Part shown: positions 1-64,000 of the stretch, piece after piece | Position numbering within the stretch: the stretch's first letter is position 1 | Layout of the letters: every line of letters begins with the position of its first letter | IMG/VR virus record: IMGVR_UViG_3300033463_000088 | Location: 11,081-75,080 of that record | Source of the DNA: a virus | Taxonomy: Duplodnaviria > Caudoviricetes | Length of the DNA stretch: 64,000 nucleotides | Strand: one strand, 5' to 3' | Notes under the pieces: model-generated | What the model saw: the letters and a program-made list of their open reading frames with translations, nothing else | Database searches by the model: none | Told to the model about the DNA's origin: nothing | Position numbers and translations under genes: made by a program

Positions 1-373
1 CAACTGTTTTATTCTTAATAGCGATGACTGGGAGCTCCATTAAATTGCTATTTTCATAAATCATAGCAACTTTATAGCTGCTCTTACCTGTTGAAATGAC
101 AACATTATTACCATCAACCTTTAATTCAAAGGTTTCTGTTGTTAAACCAGAGATAAGTGATAAGAATAAAGCGCCATCGACGACAGCCCTGAACTCTTCG
201 TCAGTATCAACTGGGAATTTAATAGAAACATAATACTCTTTGTTGGTAACATTTAAGTATAATGCTGTTGGTTTAACCGAAATTTCAACATTTGCAGCGT
301 TCTTATCATTTGGGTCAGACGCTAATAAAATCTTATTTACGGCTTCTTGGAAATCTTTTGTTTTTAAAATCAT
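1..373 (-). CDS. DNA polymerase sliding clamp (beta-clamp/DnaN-like), truncated by window edge
   Basis: Not in the track. My translation from ATG 373 is MILKTKDFQEAVNKILLASDPNDKNAANVEISVKPTALYLNVTNKEYYVSIKFPVDTDEEFRAVVDGALFLSLISGL..., open to base 1. It resembles the clamp N-terminal domain and lies directly downstream of polA. Confidence 0.62.
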   Translation of the reverse strand, partial: MILKTKDFQEAVNKILLASDPNDKNAANVEISVKPTALYLNVTNKEYYVSIKFPVDTDEEFRAVVDGALFLSLISGLTTETFELKVDGNNVVISTGKSSYKVAMIYENSNLMELPVIAIKNKTV

Positions 374-383
374 ATCTTTCTCC

Positions 384-3386: not shown

Positions 3387-3417
3387 TGACGTCTCCTTTA
3401 CTTTATATATTGATTAA

Positions 3418-4353: not shown

Positions 4354-4416
4354 TGTAATCTTTCTCCTTTATCATTTAATCGAGTATCTTTATAATATAT
4401 TATACGACCTACGCGG

Positions 4417-6698: not shown

Positions 6699-7371
6699 TT
6701 AAATTTAAGTGTCTCTTATCGATACCATGTAATTCGATATCGACTGAACGGTTAACAATTCTACTTGCTAGTCGTTCACCCATTGTTTTTTCTAAATCTC
6801 TTGCTCCGAGATTTGATGTAAAGACATTGGTTTTACCTTTTTCTATTCTCATGTTGATTAAGTTTAATAACTGATTAAGTTCAAACTCTGTACCAACTTT
6901 TGTAGCAATGTCATCCCAAACAACAATATCTGCTGTTAAGACACGAGCTTTGATAAACTCGACGTATTCACTTCTACCTGAGATACTATTTTTTAATTCA
7001 ATTAAGAACCTTGGAACGCTGATAAATAAACCTTGACAACCAAAGTTTGACTCATACCAAATAGCATTAAAATAAGCTTGAATCATTCTGATCGCCCAGG
7101 AAGTTTTACCATTGCCGCAAGTATATGAGTGAATATATAAGTTTTGTCCTGTTTGAACAAAGTTCTTAATGTTCTTCTCAATATTTGCTAGCTGTAAAAA
7201 CTCATTGTAGTCAGTTCCGTCTGCATCAGTATTTAATGTTCGTCTGACACGTTGGAGTTCTTCCAAGTTTGAGTTATCATAGAGACAGTCTAATCTGTAT
7301 CTTCTCATACAGAAATCTTTATCACAGTCTCTACCATTACATTTATGTTTATATGGACAATTCTCGACCAT
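6673..7371 (-). CDS. DnaC/IstB-like AAA+ helicase loader with N-terminal Cys cluster
   Basis: CGNGKTSW Walker A, VVWDD Walker B, TNVFTSN and RLASRI motifs. Confidence 0.85.
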   Translation of the reverse strand: MVENCPYKHKCNGRDCDKDFCMRRYRLDCLYDNSNLEELQRVRRTLNTDADGTDYNEFLQLANIEKNIKNFVQTGQNLYIHSYTCGNGKTSWAIRMIQAYFNAIWYESNFGCQGLFISVPRFLIELKNSISGRSEYVEFIKARVLTADIVVWDDIATKVGTEFELNQLLNLINMRIEKGKTNVFTSNLGARDLEKTMGERLASRIVNRSVDIELHGIDKRHLNLIATSEGRD

Positions 7372-7390
7372 TAACTGCCTCCTTCTTTAA

Positions 7391-7942
7391 TTATTTGGTT
7401 CCTGTAGAACCTGCCCAACCTTCTCCTCTGGTTGTTTTTTCTTTATAAAATTCTAATGGTGTTTTATCTACAATTTCAAGTGGCTCTGTTGAGATTAAAT
7501 GAGGAATAAATTGAATAACTTTTTGTCCGCATTCTATCTCTTGCCAGTCATCAGAAGTATTAATTAAATGGAAATGCCATTCACCTTGATAGGAGCAATC
7601 AATAACTGATGCGCCGAAAATTAATTTCTTCTTTGTAGCAATACCAGATTTATTATTTGCAATCAAAGCTAACTCAGGACCAAACTTACTTCTAATACCA
7701 CTTGGGATAATAACATCTCTGTGAGGTCTAATGTGAATTTTTCCTGTATCAACTTCATAAACAACTGGGTTTGCGCAACCTTTGATTACTGCATCAGAAG
7801 TTGTAAACCAAGTAGCTGGGTTTTTATCTTTCATGTCTCTTTGAAATTCTTCAGTATTTTCTGGAATAAATAAATCAATTCCAGCATTTTCTTCGACAAC
7901 CCTTATAGGGTCTTTAACATTTCTTGTTTTAATAAATTGCAT
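7391..7942 (-). CDS. dut: Trimeric dUTPase
   Basis: AGIDL, NKSG, VIDCSYQGE and RGEGWAGSTG motifs. Confidence 0.92.
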   Translation of the reverse strand: MQFIKTRNVKDPIRVVEENAGIDLFIPENTEEFQRDMKDKNPATWFTTSDAVIKGCANPVVYEVDTGKIHIRPHRDVIIPSGIRSKFGPELALIANNKSGIATKKKLIFGASVIDCSYQGEWHFHLINTSDDWQEIECGQKVIQFIPHLISTEPLEIVDKTPLEFYKEKTTRGEGWAGSTGTK

Positions 7943-7959
7943 TATCTACACCTCATAAT

Positions 7960-7968
7960 ATTATACAA
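7960..7968 (-). promoter_or_regulatory. Sigma-A-type -10 element TTGTATAAT upstream of dut and the replisome
   Basis: Exact TTGTATAAT followed by GAGG SD. The same 9-mer recurs at 18152, 26486, 62417 and 62887. Confidence 0.6.
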
Positions 7969-8000
7969 TAGCGATGCGCGTAAAATGAGTATAAAAATAA

Positions 8001-8029
8001 AATATCGTCCAATTTTTTCGGACGATATT
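8001..8029 (-). terminator. Intrinsic terminator
   Basis: AATATCGTCC/GGACGATATT 10-bp stem followed by a T-rich tract on the minus strand, at the end of the folD operon. Confidence 0.7.
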
Positions 8030-8149
8030 CAACTTAAATATAGAAAATGTAAGGGTATTTTTTAGGTATCATTTACAGTATCTTTTAAGTTAAATATCGT
8101 TGATATTTTATCTTATAGAACGCTCAACGCGCTCACTTAATTTAGCCAA

Positions 8150-8509
8150 TTATTCTTGCGGTAAATTAGCAAAATCTTGACATAATTGTTGATATTTTGG
8201 GCTTGCCCTTGTCTCATCAATTTTGTCTTTATAAACAGTAGGCATGTTTAGAACCCAGTCTTTACAATCTGCTAAGGAGGCAAATCTTAAGAGAGCTCCT
8301 TTGATAGGACAAGCAATCATTGGAATTGCTGTACCAGATTTGATATCAACAATTTTCCAACGAAGTTCTGGATATAAAGCTCTACCTTGCTCTTTATAAG
8401 CAAAGAGTTCATAACCAATTGCTGTTCCTGAAACTTTGACTGCTGCGTAGTGATGATCTTTTGCTTCTTCATCTCAAACACGAGTATAAATTCTAAATTC
8501 TTTTGCCAT
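8150..8509 (-). CDS. Hypothetical protein (119 aa) with in-frame TGA(Trp) at codon 12
   Basis: ATG lies 2 nt after the folD stop. MAKEFRIYTRV[TGA]DEEAKDHHY...DFANLPQE-TAA stays open for more than 100 codons past the TGA at 8474-8476. Missing from the track. Confidence 0.75.
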
Positions 8510-8511
8510 AC

Positions 8512-9297
8512 TTAATTTAGCTTTCCTAATTCAATTAAATTATCTAAAACAGCAATTCGGGTCATAAGACCGACACCGCCAGGGACTGGACTTTGGAACT
8601 TAACATGTAAGTCTTTATCACAGTCTCCAGTAAGCTTTCCATCTTCACCAACATTGATGCCGACATCAAACACTATTGCGCGAGCTTTTAGTTTATATTT
8701 AGAAGTTAATGTATGTTGATGACCAGTAGCAACAACTATCAAGTCAGCGTGTTTCAAATAAAATGCTTTATCTGATTCACTTGTCTTTGAATGCAACACT
8801 GTGACATTCATACTTTCTTTGAGTAATAGTTGAGCCATTGGTTTACCAACAATATTTGAACGTCCAATAACTACAGCATTTTTTCCTTGGAAGTCATATT
8901 TCATATCTTTTAGATAATTGTAAATGCCAAGAGGAGTTGCTGGAACAGTTTTTGATAAAGGATGGAATCCATCAATATCTTTTTCAGGAGCAATAGCAAG
9001 TTTAACTTTTTCTTCAGAGATATGTTTTGGAAGAGGTAGCTGAACTAAATAACCTGTCAAATCTGGGTCAGCATTTAAGCCTTCCATTAAGTTTAATAAT
9101 TCAACTTCAGTAGTTTCTTCCGGGAGATTAATAATTTCGCAATCAATGTTCACCTCAGCAGCATCCTTAGCTTTATTTCGAACATATCTGTCTGAGGCAG
9201 GAACATGTCCAATTTGAACAATAACCATCTTCAAATCAGGATGTGAATTTTTTAATTTTTCTTTCTTTTCTGCTACATATTCTTTAATTATTTGCAT
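8512..9297 (-). CDS. folD: Bifunctional methylene-THF dehydrogenase/cyclohydrolase
   Basis: YVRNK, LVQLPLP, KDIDGFHP, VIGRSNIVGKP, DVGIN and PVPGGVG motifs. Confidence 0.97.
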   Translation of the reverse strand: MQIIKEYVAEKKEKLKNSHPDLKMVIVQIGHVPASDRYVRNKAKDAAEVNIDCEIINLPEETTEVELLNLMEGLNADPDLTGYLVQLPLPKHISEEKVKLAIAPEKDIDGFHPLSKTVPATPLGIYNYLKDMKYDFQGKNAVVIGRSNIVGKPMAQLLLKESMNVTVLHSKTSESDKAFYLKHADLIVVATGHQHTLTSKYKLKARAIVFDVGINVGEDGKLTGDCDKDLHVKFQSPVPGGVGLMTRIAVLDNLIELGKLN

Positions 9298-9307
9298 ACT
9301 AATCTCC

Positions 9308-9556
9308 TTACCAACTAACTATAAAATTTGGATAATCTGGCCAGGCAACATTAACATTAAAGCCTTCAGAACTAATATAATCGCTAACGTCCCAAATAAG
9401 ATATCTATTTCCATATTTATCTGGGATTCTAAAAATCATTTCTCTATTTCCGCGCTCCGCTTCCATTTTTATATAATGATGGAGCTCATCAATAAATTGT
9501 TCTCTTGTAGTTCTTGGGTCAACCCCAGCTAGTTGTCTTGCTTCTTTTGCTGTCAT
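9308..9556 (-). CDS. Hypothetical protein
   Basis: 82-aa ORF with SD, in operon. Confidence 0.7.
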   Translation of the reverse strand: MTAKEARQLAGVDPRTTREQFIDELHHYIKMEAERGNREMIFRIPDKYGNRYLIWDVSDYISSEGFNVNVAWPDYPNFIVSW

Positions 9557-9557
9557 A

Positions 9558-9701
9558 TTATTTCCTCTTTTTTTGATTATTTAGCCATTGATAAAACTCA
9601 TTTGTTGCATCTCTGCAATAAAATGAGTCTGGCTTTGCAGTACAACCACTTGCGGTTTTATATCTGCAAAAATCACATTTAGTATATCTTTTACTAACCA
9701 T
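9558..9701 (-). CDS. Small Cys-rich hypothetical protein (47 aa)
   Basis: MVSKRYTKCDFCRYKTASGCTAKPDSFYCRDATNEFYQWLNNQKKRK fills the gap between fhs and the next gene with 1-nt spacing on each side. Confidence 0.6.
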   Translation of the reverse strand: MVSKRYTKCDFCRYKTASGCTAKPDSFYCRDATNEFYQWLNNQKKRK

Positions 9702-9702
9702 A

Positions 9703-11454
9703 CTAATTAAATTTATCTAAGCAGCGAGGTTCTTTTGGTAAACCTGGCATTAATAATAATTTGCCAGATAATGGAACAATTAAACCTGCGCCACTATATA
9801 ATCGGATTTCTCTAATATGAATTGTAAATCCAGTTGGAGCTCCAAGAACTTTTGGATCATCTGTTAATGAGTTTGGAGTCTTACTGATACAAACAGGAAG
9901 ATGACTATAACCCATATCAGTATATTTTCTCATTTGTTCTCTAGCTAAATCGGAATATTCAATTCGATCAGCACCATAAATATTATGACAGATAGTTCCA
10001 ATCTTATCATCAATAGAGTAATTTCTGTAATCACCTTGAGGATAAAGTGGATATAATGGTTCAAAGTGGTCAGCTAATTCTGGGAAGACACTAACTGCTT
10101 CGCTATCTTGAACATTTAAGATGCCTTGGACAGTTCTTGCTAAACTGACAGCGCCATCGCCACCATCAAGAGCAGCAGTATTAATTGCCCAATTAATTTT
10201 ATTTTCTTTACACCAAGCTCCAATAGCTTCTAATTCAGCATCAGTATCACTTGGGAAACGGTTAATAGCAACAACAACTGGGACACCATATCTTGTCATA
10301 TTTTCATAATGCTTTTGTAAATTACAAATACCAGCTTTAACTGCTTCAACATTTTCTTTTTCTAAATCTTCAAATGCAACACCACCATGAAGCTTTAATG
10401 CTCTAGCAGTGGCAACTAAGACAATAACATTTGGATGAATTCCTGCTAATTGACATTTAATATCTAAGAACTTTTCAGCTCCGAGGTCTCCACCGAATCC
10501 GGCTTCTGTGACAACAACGTCAGATAATTTAAGCGCTAACTTTGTTGCATTGATAGAATTAACACCGATAGAGATATTAGCGAATGGTCCGCAATGCACT
10601 AAAACTGGATTTTCTTCAAGTGTTTGAACAACATTTGGATTCATTGCATTTCTCATCATTTTAAGAATTGCTTTACTACAATTGAATTGTCCAAAGTAAA
10701 CTGGATTTCCATCATAGTCATAAGCAGCAATAATCTTATTAACTCTATCAATAAACTCTTCTTCGCTTTGAGAAATTGTTAAAATTGTCATAAGTTCAGA
10801 AGCAACTGTAATAACAAATTCTGAGTTATGATTTGATTTCTTGTCTCTTAATTTTTTAAGGTCTTCTTTAGTGCCGCCATTAAGAGATAATTTATCTAAT
10901 TCAATATCTAAATTTCTGCCATCTAAATCAAAACCAGCGGTGCCATCAGCATTGACGCCGACACTTCTCAATGAACGGTCATTAACGTCAAGCGCACGTT
11001 TCCATTCAATTCTTCTTGGATCAATTCTTAATTCATTGCCTTGCCAAATATGGTTTTCGATAATGGCAGACATTAAATTAATAGTAGAAGTTAACGCATG
11101 AAAATCGCCTGTGAAATGTAAATTAATATCATCACTTGGAACAATAGTTGATTTTAAGGCACCAACTGCTCCACCCTTAATGCCCCAAACAGGGCCTAAA
11201 GATGGTTCTCTTAAACAAGCAAGAGAATTAACACCAATTCTACGTAAGCCATCGTGTAGGCCAATTGTAGTTGTAGTTTTGCCTTCACCGGCTTTTGTTG
11301 GAGTAATAGCTGTTACTAATACTAATTTACCGTCAGGTCTGTCTTTCAAAACCTCACGGTATTTATAGTCAATCTTAGCTTTATCCCAACCATAAGGTTG
11401 GACATATTCATTAGGTATACCTAATTCTTTAGTTAAATCTAAAATATTTTTCAT
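9703..11454 (-). CDS. fhs: Formate--tetrahydrofolate ligase
   Basis: TAITPTKAGEGKTTTTIGL, REPSLGP, GIKGGA, INLHFTGDFHA, HCGPFANI, VTEAGFG, EKFLDIKC and MPGLPK motifs. Confidence 0.97.
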   Translation of the reverse strand: MKNILDLTKELGIPNEYVQPYGWDKAKIDYKYREVLKDRPDGKLVLVTAITPTKAGEGKTTTTIGLHDGLRRIGVNSLACLREPSLGPVWGIKGGAVGALKSTIVPSDDINLHFTGDFHALTSTINLMSAIIENHIWQGNELRIDPRRIEWKRALDVNDRSLRSVGVNADGTAGFDLDGRNLDIELDKLSLNGGTKEDLKKLRDKKSNHNSEFVITVASELMTILTISQSEEEFIDRVNKIIAAYDYDGNPVYFGQFNCSKAILKMMRNAMNPNVVQTLEENPVLVHCGPFANISIGVNSINATKLALKLSDVVVTEAGFGGDLGAEKFLDIKCQLAGIHPNVIVLVATARALKLHGGVAFEDLEKENVEAVKAGICNLQKHYENMTRYGVPVVVAINRFPSDTDAELEAIGAWCKENKINWAINTAALDGGDGAVSLARTVQGILNVQDSEAVSVFPELADHFEPLYPLYPQGDYRNYSIDDKIGTICHNIYGADRIEYSDLAREQMRKYTDMGYSHLPVCISKTPNSLTDDPKVLGAPTGFTIHIREIRLYSGAGLIVPLSGKLLLMPGLPKEPRCLDKFN

Positions 11455-12032
11455 TAATAATTTTTCTCCAGTTTATCTTTATTAACATTATACCAAGAAA
11501 CAAAATCATCGAGAGAGTCAGAGCCATCTAATTGAGTTAATAATTTAACTAATAACTTTTCTGAGTCAACATGCATTGCTCTTTGACCTTCACACTTAGC
11601 TTTCCAATAATCTAATGGTGTATGAACTGTCCAAGCTTCTTTTGAATAAGCTTTACCAGCACCAACAAAGTCACAGAACATTTCAATAACTCTTTCATAA
11701 GGCATTTTAACGCACTTACAAATAATTGTAAAAGTTCCGTCGCCATTTGGCTTGGCTTCGTTGAAATCAGTCCAATATTCCCAGTGATGTAAATTACGTG
11801 CTTTGTGGTGAATCCAGCTTGGGCTATAGCCTAACTTAGCTCTTGCAATATCATGCGGGCTTTTTGTGCCATCAGCGTATTTATAAATTTCAAACTCATC
11901 TGGACTAAACTTACTTAAATCATGTTGCTCACCAAGTTCTGGAATTCCCATTTGATAACATAAATCTCTAACAACTTTAATATGATTATTTATAGTTTGA
12001 GTATGTAAGTCTCTTTTTTCTTTATCTGTCAT
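11454..12032 (-). CDS. HD-like metal-dependent phosphohydrolase (DUF5662-like), copy 1
   Basis: H...HDLSK...WIHHKARNLHHWEYW...MP..RVIEMFCD pattern. Confidence 0.7.
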   Translation of the reverse strand: MTDKEKRDLHTQTINNHIKVVRDLCYQMGIPELGEQHDLSKFSPDEFEIYKYADGTKSPHDIARAKLGYSPSWIHHKARNLHHWEYWTDFNEAKPNGDGTFTIICKCVKMPYERVIEMFCDFVGAGKAYSKEAWTVHTPLDYWKAKCEGQRAMHVDSEKLLVKLLTQLDGSDSLDDFVSWYNVNKDKLEKNY

Positions 12033-12295
12033 TATTTAGTCTCCTGTTTAACTGTAGTAGCTGTCACCATATTTTTACCTTCTTGGGTAGGCGCGATAAT
12101 AATATCATTTAAACCCTGCTCATAACAAATTTCTTTAAGTCTTTTGCACAAATTATAAACATCTTCTTTTGGCATTTTACCAACTTCAACATTTAAAATT
12201 ACTACTTCACCAGGAGTATAAGTTTTAACTACTTTTTGAATAGTCATCTTTTGAACTTCTTCTTTAATAAATTCTTTAATTTGTTTATCTGTCAT
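12032..12295 (-). CDS. Hypothetical protein
   Basis: 87-aa ORF, translationally coupled to its neighbours. Confidence 0.65.
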   Translation of the reverse strand: MTDKQIKEFIKEEVQKMTIQKVVKTYTPGEVVILNVEVGKMPKEDVYNLCKRLKEICYEQGLNDIIIAPTQEGKNMVTATTVKQETK

Positions 12296-12791
12296 TATTA
12301 AGCTCCTTTACAACAGCATTAATTTCTTCTCTTAAATCTGTATACCAAGATTTTTTAAGTCTTTGTAATCTTAATTTAATATACTCAGTTTTTTCTGCCC
12401 AATCAGGCATTCCAACAATAATTCTATTAATTCTGTCTGGCCATAAATAAGAACCAAGCTCTATATTAGTAGTAAAAGCTGGATTATCTTTATCTCTTGG
12501 AATCCAGAATACTATTCTATCTGCTACATACATAGCATTGAGCTCCCAGTCAGTTTGGTGTTTTAACTCATCTTTAGCTTCTCTATCAAAGAGTGCATTT
12601 GTTGGGCTAAATACAATACCAATATAACCGGCTTCTTCTAAATACTTAAAAGCTTCATTTCGCCAGTCATTTTCATAATTTTTTCTTGGACATGGGCCTG
12701 CTAAAAAAATTGTAGGCAGCTCAGCAAAATTATAAGCTTCTTTTAATGGGTCAGTAAAACCGTTTTTATCTTTTGGAAAAATTTTAATCAT
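12285..12791 (-). CDS. Nucleoside 2-deoxyribosyltransferase-like protein / NMP N-glycosidase
   Basis: IFLAGP...WR...VFSP...WE..AM..AD.IVFW...TTNIELG pattern. Start moved to ATG 12791, which overlaps the upstream stop. Confidence 0.75.
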   Translation of the reverse strand: MIKIFPKDKNGFTDPLKEAYNFAELPTIFLAGPCPRKNYENDWRNEAFKYLEEAGYIGIVFSPTNALFDREAKDELKHQTDWELNAMYVADRIVFWIPRDKDNPAFTTNIELGSYLWPDRINRIIVGMPDWAEKTEYIKLRLQRLKKSWYTDLREEINAVVKELNNDR

Positions 12792-12936
12792 TTGGGCTTT
12801 CAACTCTATCACCAAGTTCAAGCTCTTCCATTAAACGTTTTTCTTCAGCTTTTTCAACTGGATCGAGCTCTCTTGTTTCAGAAATACAAGCTAATTCCAT
12901 TAAACGTCTGTGAACGTATTGTTTTCTGTTTGACAT
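12784..12936 (-). CDS. Small hypothetical protein (50 aa)
   Basis: MSNRKQYVHRRLMELACISETRELDPVEKAEEKRLMEELELGDRVESPND, coupled to both neighbours. Confidence 0.6.
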   Translation of the reverse strand: MSNRKQYVHRRLMELACISETRELDPVEKAEEKRLMEELELGDRVESPND

Positions 12937-12937
12937 A

Positions 12938-13111
12938 TTAGACCCTCGCAATAACATCTTGTAAAGCTTTAATTAAATTTGTTGAATCAACATCGAGACC
13001 ATCAACTTCACTATCGGCAATAGCTTTTGCTAATGCGCCTAAAATTTGGCCTGCTTTTGTTAAAGCTTCCACTTCTTCCTTTGAAAATTCTGCAATTTTT
13101 TTGACTTCCAT
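12938..13111 (-). CDS. Small hypothetical protein (57 aa)
   Basis: MEVKKIAEFSKEEVEALTKAGQILGALAKAIADSEVDGLDVDSTNLIKALQDVIARV, with upstream AGGA SD. Confidence 0.62.
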   Translation of the reverse strand: MEVKKIAEFSKEEVEALTKAGQILGALAKAIADSEVDGLDVDSTNLIKALQDVIARV

Positions 13112-13126
13112 TTTATTTTATCCTTT

Positions 13127-13387
13127 CTATATAAATTGTAATAATACACCAATTAAAGCTGCTGCTATACAAAACATACAGGTAGTAGCAGCATTGCTTC
13201 TCATTTTAAGAGCAAGATTCAGCAATGTATCTTCGTCTTGTTCTAGTCCTTTTTCAACACAAGCATCATAAAATTCTTTAAAAGCTTTAGTAGATTTAGT
13301 AATGCTATAAGCGGAAAACCAAAAATACCCACTAACAAAGAATAAAATTACGCTTATAACAATAAGGATTACACCAATTAAATGCAT
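13127..13387 (-). CDS. Two-TM membrane protein, hypothetical
   Basis: Hydrophobic N- and C-terminal segments. Confidence 0.6.
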   Translation of the reverse strand: MHLIGVILIVISVILFFVSGYFWFSAYSITKSTKAFKEFYDACVEKGLEQDEDTLLNLALKMRSNAATTCMFCIAAALIGVLLQFI

Positions 13388-13884
13388 TCTGCGTCCTCTC
13401 TAGTCCACTCTTGTAATATTATACCATTTTTTCTGAATAATTCTATTAAAGGTCCTCGTTCAGAACATGGATTATCGGGTTTTTCATGAACCAATAGGAC
13501 TATTTTTGGTTCACCCTTATAGTGAGTTATCTTCCTAACATCTTCAGCAATGCGTTCAAACTCAGGAATTAGATAACCATTGAAGTCTATTTTATCTAAA
13601 TGTCGCCTATATGCACTTAAAAATGCACACGCAGGCCATTTATTTTGGTACTCACAAGGCCTTCCAGAACACATTTCTTCTGGAGTTTCTTCCTCTGAGA
13701 GTAAAAAACTCTCTTCTTTTATACCAATAAGTAGGTTATTTTCATTAATATACTGACGCTTTCCATTGGCTGTATTAAGCCATTTTGGAGACCAAAATGA
13801 GGTATCTATCAAAATTAAGCTGTCATCAGTCATGAAACGGATATTTTGAAAGTAGGTTATATAATATTTATTTATCATTTCCAA
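13378..13884 (-). CDS. DUF488-like protein
   Basis: N-terminal Y.TYF...P.W and C-terminal VLLVHEKPDNPCSER pattern. Confidence 0.5.
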   Translation of the reverse strand: MEMINKYYITYFQNIRFMTDDSLILIDTSFWSPKWLNTANGKRQYINENNLLIGIKEESFLLSEEETPEEMCSGRPCEYQNKWPACAFLSAYRRHLDKIDFNGYLIPEFERIAEDVRKITHYKGEPKIVLLVHEKPDNPCSERGPLIELFRKNGIILQEWTREDAECI

Positions 13885-14767
13885 ATAAACTAAAAGTCAC
13901 TTCGTCTGTTTCTAAATTTATAGAGTCAATATGAAGAAATACTCTGCCTGCTTCACGCAATCTTCGACTAAATACCTCTAATAATTCATTAAATTTATCG
14001 TTATTAATAAGATCTGCTACTTGTTCATTAACTATAAAGCTACCTGTTTTACCAGAATGCCAGTCAGAACCAATAAGTAAACTAGCATCATGAGCTTTTT
14101 GATTTTTTAACTCTTCTAAATCTTTAACTAGCTTTACATCTATACGAATAGTTTTACCATTAATGATAATATCATAGTCTGCTAATTTACCCGGGTCTCC
14201 ATTATAACAATAGGCATCAAATGGGTCGAGACCAATACAAGAAATTCCTAACTCATTACAACTATCTTCAAAGATTGTTTGTTGAATATGACTATTAAGC
14301 TTTTTTTGTAATTTACTTTCATAAGACCCTTCCCAAATAGGTGATCCCATTGTCTGTAATAATTTTCCATGACCAACAGGAAGCTTACTATATTCTTCAA
14401 TAGAGCTAATTATATTATCACAAAGAGGGCTTCTTTCATCAATCTGCCTAACACAAGTAATTTCGCCACCTATCTTTTCTGGAAGATATATGTCGAATTT
14501 AAATACAGTACCTCTAGCCTTAAAAATAATCCAAACCAAAAAAGTTTTTTGGCCATTTTCATTATAAAAAGTTCCAGCTATTATTGCTTTTTGTGATACA
14601 GCAGCATTGCCACTCATAAAAATATCTTTAGCTGCTTGCCAACCTTCTTCAGATAGTTCTTTTCTAGTATCTAATTTAGGGCATTTTGCCTTAGCTATAT
14701 GATTTTGTAGCTTCTCTATTGGCCAATTAATTTGAGCCCACTGGGGTCGTAATGTTTCTATATTCAT
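13868..14767 (-). CDS. Hypothetical protein, possible C-terminal PD-(D/E)xK nuclease
   Basis: ADYDIIINGKTIRIDVK resembles the D...(D/E)xK catalytic pattern. Confidence 0.45.
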   Translation of the reverse strand: MNIETLRPQWAQINWPIEKLQNHIAKAKCPKLDTRKELSEEGWQAAKDIFMSGNAAVSQKAIIAGTFYNENGQKTFLVWIIFKARGTVFKFDIYLPEKIGGEITCVRQIDERSPLCDNIISSIEEYSKLPVGHGKLLQTMGSPIWEGSYESKLQKKLNSHIQQTIFEDSCNELGISCIGLDPFDAYCYNGDPGKLADYDIIINGKTIRIDVKLVKDLEELKNQKAHDASLLIGSDWHSGKTGSFIVNEQVADLINNDKFNELLEVFSRRLREAGRVFLHIDSINLETDEVTFSLFGNDK

Positions 14768-14778
14768 ATTATATTATA

Positions 14779-15309
14779 CTATTTTCTATTCCAAATTTGC
14801 TGGCTAATTGAATAACCATTTGTATACGCCATTCGGCAATCTAAGCCGTCATTCTTAAAATAAGGACTTGCGGCCATACATTGCCATTCTGGCATCTCAC
14901 TGATATTAGGGAAGAAGGCAGTAGCTTCTGGGTCAATAGCGTCAACAAATGTAATATCTATTACTTGTGTGTAAGGGAGCATGCTAGCGTATAAACTCGC
15001 ACCTCCGCAAATATATACATCTTCACTAGTAGCTAGCTTTTGAATAAAATCAAGCATTTGATCAAACTTACTAAAGGTAATTGCGCCTTCTAAACAATCA
15101 ATTGAAGGAGCATCTGCCCATAAAACAACATTAACTCTATCTTTTAATGGTCTGTGTTTAAGCGACAAATATGTATTGTAACCAAATACACAGACTTTTC
15201 CAATAGTTTCACTTTTAAAATGTGCCATATCGGCGGGAATATTAAATAAAAGACCATTGGCTTTTCCAATACCAAAGTCTTTTGCACAACAAACAATAGC
15301 TTTAATCAT
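14779..15309 (-). CDS. folA: Dihydrofolate reductase
   Basis: IGKANGLLFNIPADMAHFKSET, RPLKDRVNVV, ICGGASLY and AFFP motifs. Likely start is ATG 15309 (MIKAIVC). Confidence 0.92.
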   Translation of the reverse strand: MIKAIVCCAKDFGIGKANGLLFNIPADMAHFKSETIGKVCVFGYNTYLSLKHRPLKDRVNVVLWADAPSIDCLEGAITFSKFDQMLDFIQKLATSEDVYICGGASLYASMLPYTQVIDITFVDAIDPEATAFFPNISEMPEWQCMAASPYFKNDGLDCRMAYTNGYSISQQIWNRK

Positions 15310-15688
15310 CTTTTGGGTCCTCAAAACTTAAACTTTGACTGCAAATTTTTGACCAGGGAGTTTGTCTTTTTTCAGCTGCTTCAAAAGCTTTTTGTTCAGC
15401 TTCCATCTCAATTTTCATTTGTTCATCATCTAACTCAGCTTTCGACTTATCACCCGAGCTATAACCACCTGCAAAACCACAATGCGGGCATTTCCTACCA
15501 AGTCTAATATACTTTAAAGTAGAAGTATCAGCTGGGTTTGCTTGACTATAAGCAGCTTCACTTTCTAAAGCATAAAAAGTCTTACTGCAGCAAGGACATT
15601 GAATAGTAACAATTTTTTCACCTGTTTCTATTGCTAAGTTAGTAACTTCATCTAAGTTTCTTTCTAATTCTGTCATATTATTTTCCAA
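15302..15688 (-). CDS. Zn-ribbon hypothetical protein
   Basis: CPCC and CPHC pairs. Confidence 0.65.
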   Translation of the reverse strand: MENNMTELERNLDEVTNLAIETGEKIVTIQCPCCSKTFYALESEAAYSQANPADTSTLKYIRLGRKCPHCGFAGGYSSGDKSKAELDDEQMKIEMEAEQKAFEAAEKRQTPWSKICSQSLSFEDPKDD

Positions 15689-16277
15689 TTAATTTTCTTA
15701 ATTTTTCAGCACAGTCTTCACAAATGTGTCTTGGACTTTCATGTAAACCATTATGAATACTTGTATAAATAAGCGGAATCTCAAAAATTTCTCCGCAAAT
15801 TTCACATTTAGAATAAGCTTTTACTTCTGGGTCTGCAATTTTAAGTGGTTCAGCTAAGGCGCCTTCTATTGAAATATGACCATTGTTATCCATAGTATAA
15901 GTAGCAGCACCTTCTTCAGTAATGCCTTCTTCATTAATAGAAATTGTTTCTTGTGTCCATTTAATTGGTGGTTCATATAAATCTTTATCTTCCTGACTTG
16001 GTGTTACCTGTTCATATGTGCCATCATACAGCTCATAAGTGAACATAGAGCTGCCAGTATTACAATATTTACAGTGCCAGCCATATTGTGGCGGGTAAGA
16101 AGTTAAAATTACTCCTGTATCAACAAGAGCCACTTTACCGCATTTTGGGCACTTAATATAAACTTTATTATTCACCCAAACATAATTATTAAAAGTATGA
16201 TTTTTAATATCAACTGGTTTTACTTTTAATGTAGTTTTACCATCACCGGCATCAAATATATATTCTTTATCTGTCAT
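15678..16277 (-). CDS. Multi Zn-ribbon hypothetical protein
   Basis: Four CxxC pairs (CPKC, CKYC, CEIC, CEDC). Confidence 0.65.
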   Translation of the reverse strand: MTDKEYIFDAGDGKTTLKVKPVDIKNHTFNNYVWVNNKVYIKCPKCGKVALVDTGVILTSYPPQYGWHCKYCNTGSSMFTYELYDGTYEQVTPSQEDKDLYEPPIKWTQETISINEEGITEEGAATYTMDNNGHISIEGALAEPLKIADPEVKAYSKCEICGEIFEIPLIYTSIHNGLHESPRHICEDCAEKLRKLIGK

Positions 16278-17122
16278 TATTCAGCTACCTCAAACTTTTC
16301 TTCAAGCTTAGTTGCTTGATAATTTTCTAATTCAAAGTCTTCTTCTTTGAAATCATAGAAGTCTTTGACATTTGGATTTAATTTTAATGTTGGAGCATCA
16401 TACTCTGGGTTTTCTAAGAGCTTTCTAACTACTTCAACATGTCTATCATAAATGTGTAAATTATGTACGATATGAACTAATGTTCCAACTTGATAACCAC
16501 AAACTTGGGCTAACATATGCGTTAAAATTGCATATTCCATAGTATCCCAACCGCCTGAACTTGCAGCAGCAAGTAAGTCGCCAGAACGTTGAATAAGGGT
16601 GCAGTTTAATTTACCGTCAGTTACATCCCAAAGACTTTCATAAACACATGGAGGTAAAGCCATATCATGTAAATCTTCTGGGCACCACATGGTGACGATC
16701 ATACGTCTATCCATAGGCTTATTCTTTAATAAATAAATTAAGTTATCAACTTGATCAAAATCGCCGTAAGAATAATGAGAAACCTTACCTAATTGATAAC
16801 CATAGGTCTTACCAATAGTTCCATCAGGTCTTTCCCAAGCTCTCCAAATCGCGGCGCTAGGGCCTAATTCATTAACAACGTTGGATTTCTTCTGCCACAT
16901 CCATAAAAGCTCTCTTACGACGCCTTTAAATGCTTGTTTTCTAAGTGTTAAAGCTGGAAACTCTTTTGATAAATCATATCTACGAACAACACAATGTGTT
17001 TTAATAGTATGAGCTGGTGTACCATCTTCCCAATGTGGTCTGACTTCATAGTCCTTATCATTAAAACCATTTGTTAATAATTCAATTGCTTCTGAAATAA
17101 AATATTTATCTGCTTGACTCAT
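16277..17122 (-). CDS. thyA: Thymidylate synthase-family methyltransferase (Asp at the Asn177-equivalent position)
   Basis: ELLW, RRMIV, LPPC (catalytic Cys), QRSGD and HIYDRH motifs. It has WDTMEY where ThyA normally has (F/W)N..(S/Q)Y. The family is certain; the substrate is not. Confidence 0.9.
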   Translation of the reverse strand: MSQADKYFISEAIELLTNGFNDKDYEVRPHWEDGTPAHTIKTHCVVRRYDLSKEFPALTLRKQAFKGVVRELLWMWQKKSNVVNELGPSAAIWRAWERPDGTIGKTYGYQLGKVSHYSYGDFDQVDNLIYLLKNKPMDRRMIVTMWCPEDLHDMALPPCVYESLWDVTDGKLNCTLIQRSGDLLAAASSGGWDTMEYAILTHMLAQVCGYQVGTLVHIVHNLHIYDRHVEVVRKLLENPEYDAPTLKLNPNVKDFYDFKEEDFELENYQATKLEEKFEVAE

Positions 17123-17339
17123 CAGTCTCTTCCTCCTGTATATAACGTCCTGACCATTTCCTTATCATTTCACAAAGAGTCTTAAGCTCTCCCTGTCTTT
17201 CTTTTGGCCAATCATATTTAGTAATCTTAGTAATAAGTCTATCTGCTGTGATAGATGCATAAGTATTAATATAAATTGGAAAGGGCAATTCAAACTCTTT
17301 TTGTTCAGACTCGAAAACAATTCTACTTATTTTCATCAT
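17106..17339 (-). CDS. Hypothetical protein
   Basis: 77-aa ORF overlapping both neighbours. Confidence 0.55.
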   Translation of the reverse strand: MMKISRIVFESEQKEFELPFPIYINTYASITADRLITKITKYDWPKERQGELKTLCEMIRKWSGRYIQEEETDESSR

Positions 17340-17805
17340 CTAAAGCTTTCTTCATCTTATCTAAGATGCCTTCAACTAATTTTCTTGTGTTTTCATGAAG
17401 AACCATATCTTTATGCTTTGCATACCAGTCAAAGATTTCTCTTAAATTGCCTGTCTTATGAGAAAAACTCCACCAGTCAGCAATCATTTCATAGACATAT
17501 TGTTCTGGCATTTCAAGAGCTTCTTCTGGTTCATCATCGTGTTTTAATACCCAGTATTGCCAATGATGAGGATTTGCATGAATATGATGAAGCCAAGCAT
17601 AATTAAAGGCTTTTTCTACTTCTTTTGTTCTTTTACCATAGAAATAATCATCATAAGCTTTGTATTCCTCAGCTGTATATTTAGAAACATCGTGTAAACC
17701 AAATGAAATCTTTTCTGGAATAATTTGATGTTCATATAACCAGTCTGCTGCTTTTTGAACATTAGCAACATGAGTTGTAATATAACTTGTGTATTCTTGA
17801 CTCAT
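17323..17805 (-). CDS. HD-like metal-dependent phosphohydrolase (DUF5662-like), copy 2
   Basis: H...HDVSK...AWLHHIHANPHHWQYW...MPEQYVYEMIADW; paralogous to 11454-12032. Confidence 0.72.
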   Translation of the reverse strand: MSQEYTSYITTHVANVQKAADWLYEHQIIPEKISFGLHDVSKYTAEEYKAYDDYFYGKRTKEVEKAFNYAWLHHIHANPHHWQYWVLKHDDEPEEALEMPEQYVYEMIADWWSFSHKTGNLREIFDWYAKHKDMVLHENTRKLVEGILDKMKKALDDENK

Positions 17806-17810
17806 TATTT

Positions 17811-18134
17811 TTAACCTCTCTTATCAAACATATCATCATCTTCTAATAATGCTCTAAGTAACAAAAGATAATTAATATTATCTTGGATCTTTTCTTCCCA
17901 AAGTTCTTTAGAATATTTATGCTCACTTGCCACCATATCAGCTAAACTTTTAATATGCTTATACATAAACATATATAAAGTTCTTTCTGGAGATAGTTGA
18001 GTTAAATCATTACCTTGCTTAAAGAAAGATAATCTATCTTTATCTAAATTATACTCAGTTTGTTTAACACCTAAAGTGGCTTTACACTTTTCGAGCATTT
18101 CTTCAACAATTTTATTAAATTTTTCATGTGTCAT
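17811..18134 (-). CDS. MazG-like all-alpha nucleotide pyrophosphohydrolase / nucleotide-modification-associated protein
   Basis: K..EY...D.L..F...KH..SL.D...EEKI.D.INYLLLL pattern; first gene of the nucleotide operon. Confidence 0.5.
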   Translation of the reverse strand: MTHEKFNKIVEEMLEKCKATLGVKQTEYNLDKDRLSFFKQGNDLTQLSPERTLYMFMYKHIKSLADMVASEHKYSKELWEEKIQDNINYLLLLRALLEDDDMFDKRG

Positions 18135-18151
18135 AAAATATACCTCAATAT

Positions 18152-18160
18152 ATTATACAA
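18152..18160 (-). promoter_or_regulatory. Sigma-A-type -10 element driving the nucleotide/folate operon
   Basis: TTGTATAAT followed by GAGG SD and the ATG at 18134. A second TATAAT lies at 18202-18207. Confidence 0.62.
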
Positions 18161-18227
18161 TATAAATTCTTGCCAGATTTTACTAATTTTCTTTCTAGAT
18201 TATTATACGGCGAAGGACATTACAATT

Positions 18228-26479: not shown

Positions 26480-26485
26480 ATATTT

Positions 26486-26494
26486 ATTATACAA
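26486..26494 (-). promoter_or_regulatory. Sigma-A-type -10 element upstream of the GHMP kinase
   Basis: TTGTATAAT 6 nt before ATG 26479 with no room for an SD, so possibly a leaderless mRNA. Confidence 0.5.
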
Positions 26495-26503
26495 TAAATA
26501 AAG

Positions 26504-28494: not shown

Positions 28495-28535
28495 AAAAGT
28501 TCTCCTAACATATTATACATTTTTTAATTTTTTTC

Positions 28536-60384: not shown

Positions 60385-60414
60385 CAAAAAAAGACTTATA
60401 TAACATATAAGTCT
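60385..60414 (-). terminator. Intrinsic terminator
   Basis: AGACTTATA/TATAAGTCT stem followed by 7 T. Confidence 0.8.
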
Positions 60415-60437
60415 ATTTATGATAATATGATTGTCAG

Positions 60438-61406
60438 CTATTTAACAGTAACTGTTTCAATATGAGACACAGCTTTGTACTCTTCTAATTTAACATGATA
60501 TTTATTATAACAAACACCATCTTCAATTATTAAGACATTCTGCGGATGATAATAGGCTCCGATTGAAGTAACATATACTCCGCAATCAATACCGATTACA
60601 TCTTTACTATAATAAATTTTAGTAATAAAGCTACCAGTATTTTTTATATTCTTTAAATGCTTATAGAAATCTGCTACATGCCAGTGACCACAAACAATAG
60701 TTTTGCCTGTTTTATTCCAACCTTTTTTAGCTTTTGCCCAAGGACAACCCCATGTAGCATCACCCCACTCAGTTTGAGTAGCGTTTTTCCAGTCTTCTCT
60801 ATAACCTATTTCTTCTGGTGGGCAATTTGGGTCTAACATAGCAAACTTGGTAGCACATGGAATCCAGCTATGAACCATAATATATTTATCTAATTCAAAA
60901 TAGTTAACCCATCTTTTATCATCTAAAATTAGCTTTGTAATTGGGTGATTTTTAACAATTTCTAAAACTTGCTTCCAATGCTTATTTGTTAAGTCACCTT
61001 CTGGGTTATCATCAGCATCTTCCCAACCACGATAGAGGCTAAAATACTGATAATAACTATTTTTCTCAAAATAACCTTCAATACAATCAAAGTCTAACTG
61101 TTTTGTTCTTGCTATTTGACAAAAAGTGTCTACTGTATGATTATGAAAATCATGACTTTCTGGATAATCTTTTTCTAAAAGTTCTTTATATAATAATTCA
61201 TGGTTGCCACGAACTAAGATACAACGTTTTTTTGGAATAGAAGAAATAAATTTATAAATACTTAAAGCATCTGGCCCACGATCAAATAAATCACCTAAGA
61301 TTACCAAGGTGTGATTTTTGTTTTTCTTATCAAACCCAGCATCTTTTAATGCATTTTTGAATTCAATATAGAAACTATGAATGTCAGATACTACAAAATA
61401 TTTCAT
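60438..61406 (-). CDS. Calcineurin-like metallophosphoesterase
   Basis: SDIHS, GDLFDRG, RGNHE, VHS, GHWH and IDCG motifs; all Trp codons are TGG. Confidence 0.9.
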   Translation of the reverse strand: MKYFVVSDIHSFYIEFKNALKDAGFDKKNKNHTLVILGDLFDRGPDALSIYKFISSIPKKRCILVRGNHELLYKELLEKDYPESHDFHNHTVDTFCQIARTKQLDFDCIEGYFEKNSYYQYFSLYRGWEDADDNPEGDLTNKHWKQVLEIVKNHPITKLILDDKRWVNYFELDKYIMVHSWIPCATKFAMLDPNCPPEEIGYREDWKNATQTEWGDATWGCPWAKAKKGWNKTGKTIVCGHWHVADFYKHLKNIKNTGSFITKIYYSKDVIGIDCGVYVTSIGAYYHPQNVLIIEDGVCYNKYHVKLEEYKAVSHIETVTVK

Positions 61407-61416
61407 ATTAATTAAT

Positions 61417-61569
61417 TTAGTCGTCCCATTCCCAAATTGTTGCTAATACTGCGTATGGAAATGCAAATAATAAACCTAAAATAGCAAATGGAACAAATAA
61501 TACTGCGCCAAGTAATGCCAATGGAACACAAAATATTGAACCAAAAATTTTACCAACTGTAGATTTCAT
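61417..61569 (-). CDS. Small membrane protein (50 aa)
   Basis: MKSTVGKIFGSIFCVPLALLGAVLFVPFAILGLLFAFPYAVLATIWEWDD; its ATG overlaps the upstream stop. Confidence 0.6.
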   Translation of the reverse strand: MKSTVGKIFGSIFCVPLALLGAVLFVPFAILGLLFAFPYAVLATIWEWDD

Positions 61570-61907
61570 TATTGTAATACCTCCGCATCTTTTACTAAAT
61601 AATCATATACTGTTTCCCAGGTTTCTACTTCTGGAGTTTCTTGTAATTGCTTTGCTTTATGTTTTGCATCAAAATTATCAAAGTCATATAATTTATAAGT
61701 AATTAATTCTGTATGATCATACATTACTTTGGTAATTAATTTAAGTAATTTATCTTCATAATCACCATATAAGAATACATCACAATAAGTTTCTGGACTT
61801 AGTTCTTCTAATGCTTTACAGAATTTGTCTTGCTGAAGACTCTTCTTTTGAATGAACTCCATGTAAGTTACAAATTCTTGTTTACTGAGTAACATTTTAT
61901 TCTTCAT
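61569..61907 (-). CDS. Hypothetical protein
   Basis: 112-aa ORF in operon. Confidence 0.65.
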   Translation of the reverse strand: MKNKMLLSKQEFVTYMEFIQKKSLQQDKFCKALEELSPETYCDVFLYGDYEDKLLKLITKVMYDHTELITYKLYDFDNFDAKHKAKQLQETPEVETWETVYDYLVKDAEVLQ

Positions 61908-62397
61908 TTTTTAATAGCTCTTGTGCTTTCTTCTTTTGTTTTTTCTCTAATTTATTATAAGCTTCTTCAACTGTTTCTTCTGTAATTTCTTGTTTTTCTA
62001 GCATTTTTCTAAAAGCTTCTTGTTCAGCTTTATTATACCAAGTACCATATTCTGTTTTTTCCCAGCCTGGGTTTTCTTTTAGCCAATCATCTAAGCGATT
62101 TTTATAGTCTTCTTCATCCCAACACATTTCTGTATGATTATCTGGAAATTCTTTTTCTAACATAACTACTTGGTCATAATCAACAAATTCAAATTTACCT
62201 TCATCACCATATTCACTATTATAGCTAACATCAGTCCATTCTATAATAGAGCAATAGCCATCAGTAGTAATATGAATATCATAATATTGTTTATCATTCT
62301 TTTTATTGTGATCTAAAAGATAATTAAGCAAGTCATTAAATAAACCTTGTTCAACTTCTTCTGGTGTAAATGCTTGGTAGTTATAGTTTCTGTTCAT
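61897..62397 (-). CDS. Hypothetical protein
   Basis: 166-aa ORF with AGGAG SD and TTGTATAAT at 62417-62425. Confidence 0.7.
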   Translation of the reverse strand: MNRNYNYQAFTPEEVEQGLFNDLLNYLLDHNKKNDKQYYDIHITTDGYCSIIEWTDVSYNSEYGDEGKFEFVDYDQVVMLEKEFPDNHTEMCWDEEDYKNRLDDWLKENPGWEKTEYGTWYNKAEQEAFRKMLEKQEITEETVEEAYNKLEKKQKKKAQELLKNEE

Positions 62398-62436
62398 AAA
62401 AAACTCCTATATTTATATTATACAATATTTTCCATT

Positions 62437-62461
62437 AAAAAACCTCCATTTCTGGAGGCTT
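62437..62461 (-). terminator. Intrinsic terminator
   Basis: CCTCCA-GAAA-TGGAGG followed by TTTTTT. Confidence 0.85.
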
Positions 62462-62465
62462 ATTA

Positions 62466-62825
62466 TTACCAAGTAATAAAAATGCAATTGTCTCGAACTT
62501 CAGTTTTATAACCATCAATTTCGAGCTCTTTGAGCAAATGCTCTTTGCAAATAGGACTAAGATTTTCTGTAGCCCACTCAATGCTAATATAACCTTCTAA
62601 AGCAGTATCTCTAATATATTTATAGAGACGTGTTAATTGAACTATACTAGTATCAGCCATATTTCTGGCTTCTGTAGCATTGAGTCTTCTTTTTTGAAGC
62701 TTCTCAATATTTGCTAGTTTAAGTTCTGCAAGTTTTTTCTCTTCTTGCGCGTCAATGTCTGCTAGCTTAATATAGACATCTGGATCTACTTTGCCTTGTA
62801 AAGGCTCTCTTAATTGTTTACCCAT
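62466..62825 (-). CDS. Hypothetical protein
   Basis: 119-aa ORF; TTGTATAAT at 62887-62895. Confidence 0.65.
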   Translation of the reverse strand: MGKQLREPLQGKVDPDVYIKLADIDAQEEKKLAELKLANIEKLQKRRLNATEARNMADTSIVQLTRLYKYIRDTALEGYISIEWATENLSPICKEHLLKELEIDGYKTEVRDNCIFITW

Positions 62826-62903
62826 ATCTTCTCTTTCTGCGCTTACGAGCTATGATGCTATGGACCATCACGCGAACCCGTAGTATATTATACAATATTT
62901 TTA

Positions 62904-64000
62904 AAAAATAAAAAATCTGGCTACTTTCGTTTAGGTTTACAATAGTTTACCTGTTTCCGTAGTCAGATTTTAAACTTGTAGAGGGTATAGAACTTGAAGT
63001 CCGTCCACCTCTGGACAAATAGAAGAGCCAAACCCTTCCATGACGAGACTAACTCTCATGTTTCCCCAGCTTTATCTTCTCTCTACCATTTCTGGTTAAT
63101 TACCTATTTGTTAATGGCTTTGAACCAAACACTTCAAGATTCGGATCATTAGCAGGTCATGCTGCCTCAAAGATAGGTCCGATGGTTTAGTCTTAGATCT
63201 CTACATCGAGTCAAATAGGCTGAAGGAGTCCACTTACACTTACAGATTCCGATTTCGGCTCCTGTTCGGAAATAGTTTTGAGTCAATCAAGGACAAAAAG
63301 CCTATAAGTACAACATCCAGTACTGGGTGGTGGAACTATTTAATTAATGTATTGGTTCATTTCTACCTAAAGAAGTAATTAACTTCACCCACCAATAAGG
63401 CCTTTATCGCTCAAGAGTTATACCTCCGACGAACGGTTTTATATTGCCACCGAAAATTACTAGTGCATATTATTTTAATTCCCAGCAACCTAGCATACCT
63501 TTTCTCGTGATTATCTTTCGTATAAGTTAGATAATCATTCGCTTTGGTTTTTATCCAAAGAACATCGGGAATTTTATAAAGTTTTAACGGAATTGAGGCA
63601 TATACAGCCAGCTTTCAACCTAGCACCTATTTGGCAGTCAAACTTCAAGAGCCGGACCACCCATTTGTAACTTAATACCAGATATTCAGTGCATTGCCGA
63701 CATCATCTCATTCCTTAGGTGAGAAGGCTTCTTAGGCTCGCCGGCGCTCCATTGCTGGAGAATTTATAATCACACCACGTCCAGCCATGCATTGAACCCC
63801 CGAATCCGGGGAACTGGCATAGGTGTAATTAGCATAAGGGGCCATACTCGTGGTATAACCCATTACAATACTGCTCTTACATAAGATAAGGCAGAGAGTA
63901 AGTTCCCGAAATTATTTACTTACAGTGGATTCGGTTTAGGCGGTAGATACCACTGATACTTCCAAACATTACTGCTTTTTACGAGTGTGTCTCTCGGGAG
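62904..64000 (-). ncRNA. Candidate large structured non-coding RNA (GOLLD/ROOL-like class), 5' part beyond the window
   Basis: More than 1 kb with no track ORF, visibly more GC-rich than the flanks, many short perfect helices, and a long 3' stem with a U-tract. Family not identified. Confidence 0.55.

Follow-up and report, generated by a model that had tools for sequence, protein, structure and literature searches.

The window, by which we mean the whole stretch of 64,000 nucleotides that was analyzed, corresponds to the final 64 kb of a linear virus contig of 75,080 bp, on which no terminal repeat was found, and its position 64000 is the contig end. Almost all genes of the window lie on the minus strand. 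The phage's DNA polymerase has its nearest counterparts in Streptococcus, Clostridium and Enterococcus phages (31-33% identity), which would fit a Bacillota-type host. ARAGORN detected no tRNA or tmRNA on the contig, the window included. Positions 62904-64000 contain no frame of at least 100 amino acids, either under genetic code 11 or with TGA read through (code 4), and when any one stop is reassigned, open stretches reach no more than 87-133 codons; 83-97% of the rest of the window is covered by open frames of at least 100 amino acids. The G+C content is 0.41 in 62904-64000 as compared to ~0.33 elsewhere, the highest of any 1-kb bin of the window. The earlier note had described the region as a non-coding stretch without an ORF and had named a long code-4 ORF as the competing explanation; such a frame was looked for in 62904-64000 and is absent, as is an open frame under any stop-codon reading, and the description holds.

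On its 3' side the stretch ends in a terminator-like long hairpin followed by a U-tract (62971-62904, minus strand). An 11-bp closing stem had been noted here; it is present, and its arms are longer than claimed, with 12 of 13 nucleotides paired (62971-62959 with 62924-62912). A 17-nt promoter-like motif with an extended -10 box, TGTATAAT, marks the boundary outside the RNA at 62900-62884. An identical copy is found at 62430-62414 (minus strand), and the two precede two successive early genes. Looser copies occur at 18149-18165, 26483-26499, 28509-28525 and elsewhere, giving 11 matches in the window as opposed to 2.4 expected. Inside 62972-64000, neither the promoter motif nor a terminator was found on the minus strand. 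The RNA is therefore expected to be transcribed from beyond the contig end and, because window position 64000 is that end, to be truncated at its 5' side.

A neighboring gene (61897-62397, minus strand) encodes a 166-aa protein without a match in Pfam or PHROG. Its 135 homologues (54-80% identity) occur on phage-like contigs, the longest of 273 kb, and often lie close to genes for thymidylate synthase, DHFR, RNA ligase/Pnkp-type and AAA proteins. A 322-aa NinI/Pnkp-like, Metallophos-type phosphoesterase is encoded at 60438-61406, 1.5 kb downstream of the RNA. Two related loci, L003 (the ERZ27257207 contig) and L004, encode a 757-aa fusion of an AAA_33 kinase, a Metallophos domain and a T4-type RNA ligase 1, and in addition carry separate Metallophos genes near the RNA/tRNA region, so that their surroundings form an RNA-repair-like neighborhood.

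The earlier note had listed a series of minus-strand hairpins in 62904-64000, all of which are present and are located below. Folding energies were not informative in this respect: minus-strand MFE z-scores relative to dinucleotide shuffles were -2.3, -0.45 and 0.04 for three sub-stretches of 62904-64000, while those of neighboring coding stretches (-1.9 and -3.0) were as good or better. The z-score was not significant and was dropped as evidence for structure. By thermodynamics, the hairpin density is not above chance. The signal that exceeds chance is, at the level of sequence comparison, conservation together with compensatory change in homologues, and at the same level 62904-64000 is a non-coding, structured RNA on the minus strand.

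The 3' core and its homologues

A homologue of the neighboring 166-aa protein pointed to L004, whose 510-nt gene-free gap shares 31 nt with window positions 63340-63310. When this block was used as a scan pattern, 6 loci were retrieved from IMG/VR and 45 from JGI/ENA metagenomes, and a second pattern on a later block added two more divergent loci (L060-L061). The members are L004-L010, L013-L057 minus four false matches, and L060-L061; L011, L012, L034 and L044 were left out. These four, two pattern matches in GTDB (Elusimicrobiales MAGs) and two similar ones in metagenomes, were coincidences within protein-coding sequence. Six loci were removed as duplicates. About 45 different contigs from phages or metagenomes thus carry the element, and several have lengths of 115-273 kb. 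When the region and a typical core were compared by blastn with 50,697 GenBank phage records, no member was found; nor was there a homologous RNA in the 59-kb record of L001, the nearest relative by the phosphoesterase gene, or a true match of the pattern of block B1 (described below) in GTDB species-representative bacterial genomes.

The members have five collinear blocks in common, designated B1 to B4 and a final hairpin with a conserved loop. B1 is 29 nt long (63336-63308 in the window) and nearly invariant: 26 of 26 aligned members are identical save at two variable positions, the pattern being GUUCCACCACC, two variable nucleotides and GUACUGAAUGUUGU. B2 contains AGUGGACU, B3 is AAUAGGUAAUUAAC, and B4 consists of an A-rich run followed by GCnnGGGGAAC. 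The window fits the B1 pattern without mismatch at 63336-63310 and differs from the consensus once (G for A at 63317); this is the only match in the window, and 100 shuffles gave none. From B1 to the contig end, 664 nt of upstream sequence are available. More than 60 columns are invariant across 26 core sequences, and unpaired and pseudoknot nucleotides remain invariant across phages ranging from ~33% to more than 55% G+C. The size of the core varies from ~100 to 440 nt among members.

An eight-helix fold derived from the sequences was tested on 26 full-length, non-redundant cores aligned with MAFFT (A2), and this alignment and the pair counts place the core of the window at 63336-63022. The 45 pairs of the fold are formed in 93.2% of the alignment cells as compared to 82.8% in shuffled alignments, 25 pairs are changed on both sides (16.9 in shuffled alignments), and the covariation score is 0.314 (shuffled, 0.131); none of 500 shuffles reached any of these values. 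When partners were slid by 1-3 columns, 28-46% of the cells were paired and scores dropped to 0.04-0.09. By covariation, the new RNA family is well supported, and its predicted fold is supported.

P1, a 7-bp helix joining the start of B1 to B2 (63336-63330 with 63233-63228), is invariant in A2 and compensated in the divergent L061. Pa (63309-63302 with 63245-63238) is a variable hairpin in which all eight closing pairs covary and which in the window encloses the stem TTCCGA/TCGGAA (63271-63247). H3 joins B2 to the purine run before B4 (63225-63222 with 63079-63076), while H4 joins B2 to B3 (63220-63212 with 63110-63102) and has five covarying pairs. Three further hairpins are Py with a GAAA loop (63096-63085), Px (63060-63039) and the final hairpin (63038-63022), which carries the conserved GGUUKNGC-type loop. 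A pseudoknot joins CCYRG of B1 to CnnGG of B4 (63327-63323 with 63069-63065). Its one variable pair is formed in 38 of 39 members by four pair types (CG, UG, UA and AU; permutation p = 5e-5), and L026 shows a double change to AA/UU; the neighboring pair is often A-C and displays no significant covariation. The window copy can form all helices in the family order, including a perfect 5-bp pseudoknot, with compensatory variants in Pa and H3; its Px and last loop are slightly atypical.

Three other pairings were considered and dropped. Pairing of the B1 start with GGAAC of B4 is uncompensated in L061, whereas P1 is compensated there. The self-complementary YRGUACUG was considered as a kissing or dimer site, but the two bases that vary in it proved to covary with B4. 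A third candidate, in which the final hairpin loop pairs with CCACCACC of B1, was discarded since the loop varies while B1 is constant.

A tentative optional domain follows the core in the window (63016-62975), consisting of a GUCC...GGAC stem, seen as the hairpin GTCCA-GAGG-TGGAC (63016-63003), and GUUCUAnnCC. It is common to L010, L018 and L025 only, and L025 has GUUC/GAAU in place of GUCC/GGAC.

Since the asymmetry of wobble pairs between the strands is modest (93.2% paired as opposed to 90.9% on the opposite strand), the strand of the RNA was set mainly by its context, i.e., terminators 3' of the core, -10 boxes before it in four members, and tRNAs on the same strand in 59 of 59 cases. The -10 boxes lie 9-14 nt before B1. 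In several members the final core hairpin is directly followed by a terminator, composed of a short G+C-rich hairpin and a U-run. In L033, L041, L015, L005 and the window, a fresh promoter comes after the terminator at which the RNA ends.

Minimal forms and tRNA arrays

In L036, L054 and L049, the core from B1 through the last hairpin spans only ~100 nt, and both Pa and the whole H3/H4/Py domain are lacking. The MAFFT alignment that included these minimal forms (A4) was too poor for pair counts, and anchored regex counts were used instead. Because the minimal forms lack the remaining parts, the core consists of P1, the loop pseudoknot and two hairpins, with everything else inserted at two fixed sites.

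That RNAs of this kind often occur near tRNA genes, as the earlier note had it, is borne out by the relatives, in which the core adjoins or sits inside tRNA arrays. The core of L049 sits between tRNA-Trp and tRNA-Asp; that of L047 also lies between tRNAs and is followed by tRNA-Pro; and B1 of L060 starts 2 nt after the 3' end of a tRNA-Arg within a nine-tRNA array. Longer forms are located downstream of arrays of 6-16 tRNAs. The spacing between the core and flanking tRNAs is variable and mostly at least 100 nt.

Stop-codon reassignment is a further trait of several of these phages. Read-through of TGA raises the cover by frames of at least 100 amino acids from 0.83 to 0.97 in window positions 18135-60400, with fewer pieces, and leaves it unchanged in the blocks 1-18134 and 60401-62880. 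One core-bearing relative encodes a tRNA with a CUA anticodon (L008:95-169), to which ARAGORN gave the name tRNA-Pyl and which probably acts as an amber suppressor. Since the phage of the window reads TGA through in its late genes and this relative has a CUA anticodon, the family occurs in recoded phages without being tied to one reassignment.

Upstream modules

The part of the stretch upstream of the core is composed of blocks with separate histories of conservation. Three of them, A0 and Modules A and B, recur in other phages, where they have the same strand as the core but lie at other distances from it. Closest to the contig end lies A0 (63972-63839), a conserved non-coding block that matches L031 on the same strand in an nhmmer search (E = 1.5e-14), ~1.4 kb upstream of the L031 core; its conservation is seen in these two sequences only. 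Module A (63831-63767) is ~65 nt long, is closed by a 10-bp stem and holds the CCCCGGAUUCGGGG hairpin, whose CCCCG/CGGGG stem was seen at 63811-63798. Its four homologues (L014, L022, L032 and L047) lie at four different distances from their cores, between -217 and -1345 nt, and the consensus fold has 21 pairs, four of them with compensatory change. A 5-bp hairpin with a GNRA loop, CTCCA-GCAA-TGGAG, follows at 63760-63747. For the non-coding Stretch X (63746-63581), neither nhmmer nor blastn found a homologue among 58 loci.

Module B (63575-63351) is a multi-hairpin domain of ~225 nt with its own long-range closing helix, and includes the stems CTTTGG/CCAAAG (63560-63542), TGATTATCT/AGATAATCA (63537-63508) and GAAGT/ACTTC (63386-63372). 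It is 80% identical to homologues in L024 and L048/L058, and 9 of its 56 predicted pairs are changed on both sides. Whereas it adjoins the core in the window, it lies ~1.45 kb upstream of the core in those relatives, and the sequence in between is ORF-poor. Pattern scans of IMG/VR yielded one locus for Module B and none for Module A. Other phages carry other upstream modules, one block being common to L004, L006 and L010, and the core is surrounded by ORF-poor gaps of 0.5-2.4 kb in the relatives. This mosaic pattern resembles that of tRNA arrays themselves.

Because the upstream modules form a mosaic and minimal cores are autonomous, the 1.1 kb probably represent several RNA modules strung together on one transcript and not a single giant RNA of fixed makeup. 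The earlier note had proposed a large ornate RNA of more than 1 kb. The structured RNA is upheld by our comparison, while a single RNA of that length appears doubtful given that the 3' ~330 nt are self-sufficient and the upstream parts are independently conserved.

Two side observations concern the relatives. In L024:1500-3700, ~2.2 kb between the Module B homologue and the core contain no ORF of more than 83 amino acids, so that some relatives carry multi-kb RNA-only regions. A G+C-rich hairpin beginning with GGCCCGGGGAUAUCCCGCGCG is found just upstream of B1 in L005 and as the Pa hairpin in L017/L045, which suggests a mobile hairpin module.

Identity and possible function

The Rfam covariance-model check that the earlier note had proposed was run with Rfam 15. 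At gathering score, no match was obtained in the window, and none apart from their tRNAs in seven homologous loci. At E ≤ 10, with queries of 181-1601 nt (the window stretch, L004, the L033 core and the L054 minimal form), nothing relevant was found; the sole look-alike in the window stretch was its terminator, which resembles a Streptococcus sRNA terminator (stem and U-run). Group I and II introns, tmRNA and RNase P were not recovered, and neither the GOLLD (RF01998) nor the ROOL (RF03087) model matched the window or the homologous loci at gathering score or E ≤ 10. The tRNA and tmRNA models gave no match in the window stretch at E ≤ 10, nor did the ribozyme and RNase P models with queries of 181-411 nt. 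Two readings were set aside: a CR-I-like block of RNase P was discerned by eye, but its strand order is reversed, no model matched, and it was treated as chance; the likeness to HDV ribozymes is a resemblance only, and no HDV family of Rfam matched. Judged by covariance models, a catalogued ribozyme or riboswitch identity is excluded for the element by Rfam 15. The earlier note had left the choice between a GOLLD or ROOL member and a new class; the first option fails even at E ≤ 10 and the second is favored. That the core represents a new RNA family is thus well supported relative to the catalogued families of Rfam 15; it could coincide with one of the 8,495 unnamed IMG/VR candidates of PMC10690425.

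GOLLD is a phage RNA of no known function found near tRNA islands, with a conserved 3' and a variable 5' region and many helices and pseudoknots (PMC12286853); its membership was defined by Kretsch et al. by cmsearch at E ≤ 1e-5. The present family resembles it in layout only, with a conserved core, variable upstream parts and tRNA arrays in relatives, and differs in that its core can be as small as ~100 nt, its upstream parts are separable modules, and the covariance model does not match. ROOL, originally discovered in metagenomes of the rumen, is present in phages and prophages, often close to tRNAs, and is likewise of no known function; it averages 581 nt with six multistem junctions, three pseudoknots and ~10 highly conserved nucleotides (PMC5737381). 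By contrast, the family described here has a 29-nt near-invariant block, one supported pseudoknot and a far smaller minimal form, and, while ROOL occurs in bacterial genomes, B1 has no true match in species-representative ones. The T4 tRNA cluster contains rnaC and rnaD (species 1 and 2 RNAs), small stable RNAs without known function (AF158101 annotation). They are similar to the core in context only, being arranged in a row with phage tRNA genes of the same orientation and presumably matured from a tRNA precursor. The best blastn hit of rnaC/rnaD to the core covered 14 nt on the wrong strand (E = 0.054), no B1-like block was found in them, and they end in a tRNA-like T-arm, whereas no tRNA-like call was obtained for the core.

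HDV-like theta ribozymes are found in recoded gut-type phages, are associated with tRNA genes and have a nested pseudoknot topology, all of which recalls the core. They differ in that no Rfam HDV model matches the core, the 3' strand of the pseudoknot here precedes the hairpins, a conserved C equivalent to that at J4/2 is lacking, and the core usually does not adjoin a tRNA end.

We propose, with a probability of about 0.55, that the stretch specifies a stable minus-strand non-coding RNA built as a string of at least four modules, the 3'-most of which belongs to an uncatalogued phage RNA family, and that the transcript is processed and its core acts in trans. Non-coding status, family membership, fold and genomic context are established by the comparisons above, whereas transcription, processing and target belong to the proposal. 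The promoter would lie beyond the contig end, and the modules, each of them folded and conserved separately, would share one transcript. The 3'-most of them (63336-63022 with the optional tail and the terminator) is built on the 7-bp P1, a 20-nt invariant loop, the pseudoknot that connects this loop with the segment following P1, and two hairpins, the last with the conserved loop; variable domains are inserted at two fixed sites. In the manner of the stable RNAs encoded in phage tRNA clusters, the modules may be released from a tRNA-cluster-type precursor by host tRNA/RNA processing enzymes, whereupon the core would act in trans. Its invariant unpaired and pseudoknot nucleotides could form the surface that is bound by a conserved factor, of host or phage origin, with a role in translation or tRNA metabolism; alternatively, the target may be a tRNA-directed defense nuclease, with the core serving as decoy or modulator. 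The proposed target is a guess, because no partner protein recurs beside the core (the largest flanking cluster comprises 7 loci and has no Pfam match). As no promoter or terminator lies within 62972-64000, one long transcript is expected, and it could also function unprocessed.

The same absence of internal signals is what a single giant ornate RNA of at least 1.1 kb would predict, GOLLD-like in having a conserved 3' core and a lineage-variable 5' part, and working whole, possibly as a homo-oligomer. The stretch is ORF-free throughout with raised G+C, the relatives have the 0.5-2.4 kb ORF-poor gaps, and GOLLD displays the same layout near tRNA islands (PMC12286853). However, the core exists alone, as units of ~100-200 nt between tRNAs and with its own -10 box, upstream modules recombine freely as judged from the shifting positions of Modules A and B, and each of these two is closed by its own terminal helix, so that we regard this explanation as rather unlikely. 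Less probable still is that the ~100-nt pseudoknot core by itself constitutes a new functional RNA class acting on phage tRNA-array transcripts or the host tRNA machinery. It may then be a ribozyme cutting tRNA-RNA junctions, or a captor of tRNA 3' ends or of tRNA-directed defense nucleases, and large forms such as that of the window may be ornate elaborations, self-assembling in the manner of GOLLD and ROOL. Catalysis taken on its own, i.e., a self-cleaving or pre-tRNA-processing ribozyme at tRNA-array junctions, is quite doubtful. The invariance of unpaired and pseudoknot nucleotides over the wide G+C range and the position within tRNA arrays, in one case only 2 nt away from the 3' end of a tRNA, would fit it, and we find that the nested P1 and pseudoknot with a dispensable domain at a fixed site recall double-pseudoknot ribozymes; but the Rfam ribozyme and RNase P models gave no match, the spacing to flanking tRNAs is mostly long and variable, and no conserved candidate cleavage site was identified.

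A cis-acting role is suggested by L004 and L038, in which the core forms part of a ~530-nt leader directly before a Metallophos gene, and the window has its Metallophos-type phosphoesterase 1.5 kb downstream. The RNA would then be a leader or riboswitch-like element for downstream early genes such as the metallophosphoesterase block. This is highly improbable in view of the loci named above in which a terminator and a fresh promoter intervene, of the downstream genes, which vary among loci without a protein family common to more than 7 of them, and of the minimal forms, which are followed by tRNAs and not by ORFs. Finally, the position at the contig end and the unexceptional single-sequence folding would be expected of a stretch without function at the RNA level, be it decayed genes, an assembly artifact where the contig ends, or an origin or packaging site that acts at the DNA level. 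We give this hardly any credence: the same blocks occur inside contigs of 115-273 kb, compensatory changes keep the helices intact, the element is strictly co-oriented with tRNAs, and no protein-like frame exists under any code. The covariation tests of the core and the pseudoknot have largely refuted it already.

Few large, intricately conserved RNAs of bacteria or phages lack an assigned role, and such RNAs have repeatedly opened the way to new biochemistry. The family described here combines a 29-nt near-invariant block, maintained across very different base compositions, with a covariation-backed fold, and its natural minimal form of ~100 nt is a small, easily testable RNA. Its context is tight, since it is associated with the tRNA arrays of uncultivated phages, among them several with reassigned stop codons. 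The family offers a concrete RNA for testing why phage tRNA clusters carry extra structured RNAs, a question that dates from the T4 species 1 and 2 RNAs.

The genome segment that is missing past the contig end is likely to contain the tRNA cluster, and the context suggests that this may include a suppressor tRNA for TGA reading. At the contig start of L001 (IMGVR_UViG_3300028833_004300, positions 1-860), the 3' half of a partial tRNA is followed by a tRNA-like gene called tRNA-Phe (anticodon AAA) and then by an HNH-type ORF with an in-frame TGA. As this contig, too, terminates within tRNA-like sequence, the RNA-rich region appears to be a place where assemblies stop.
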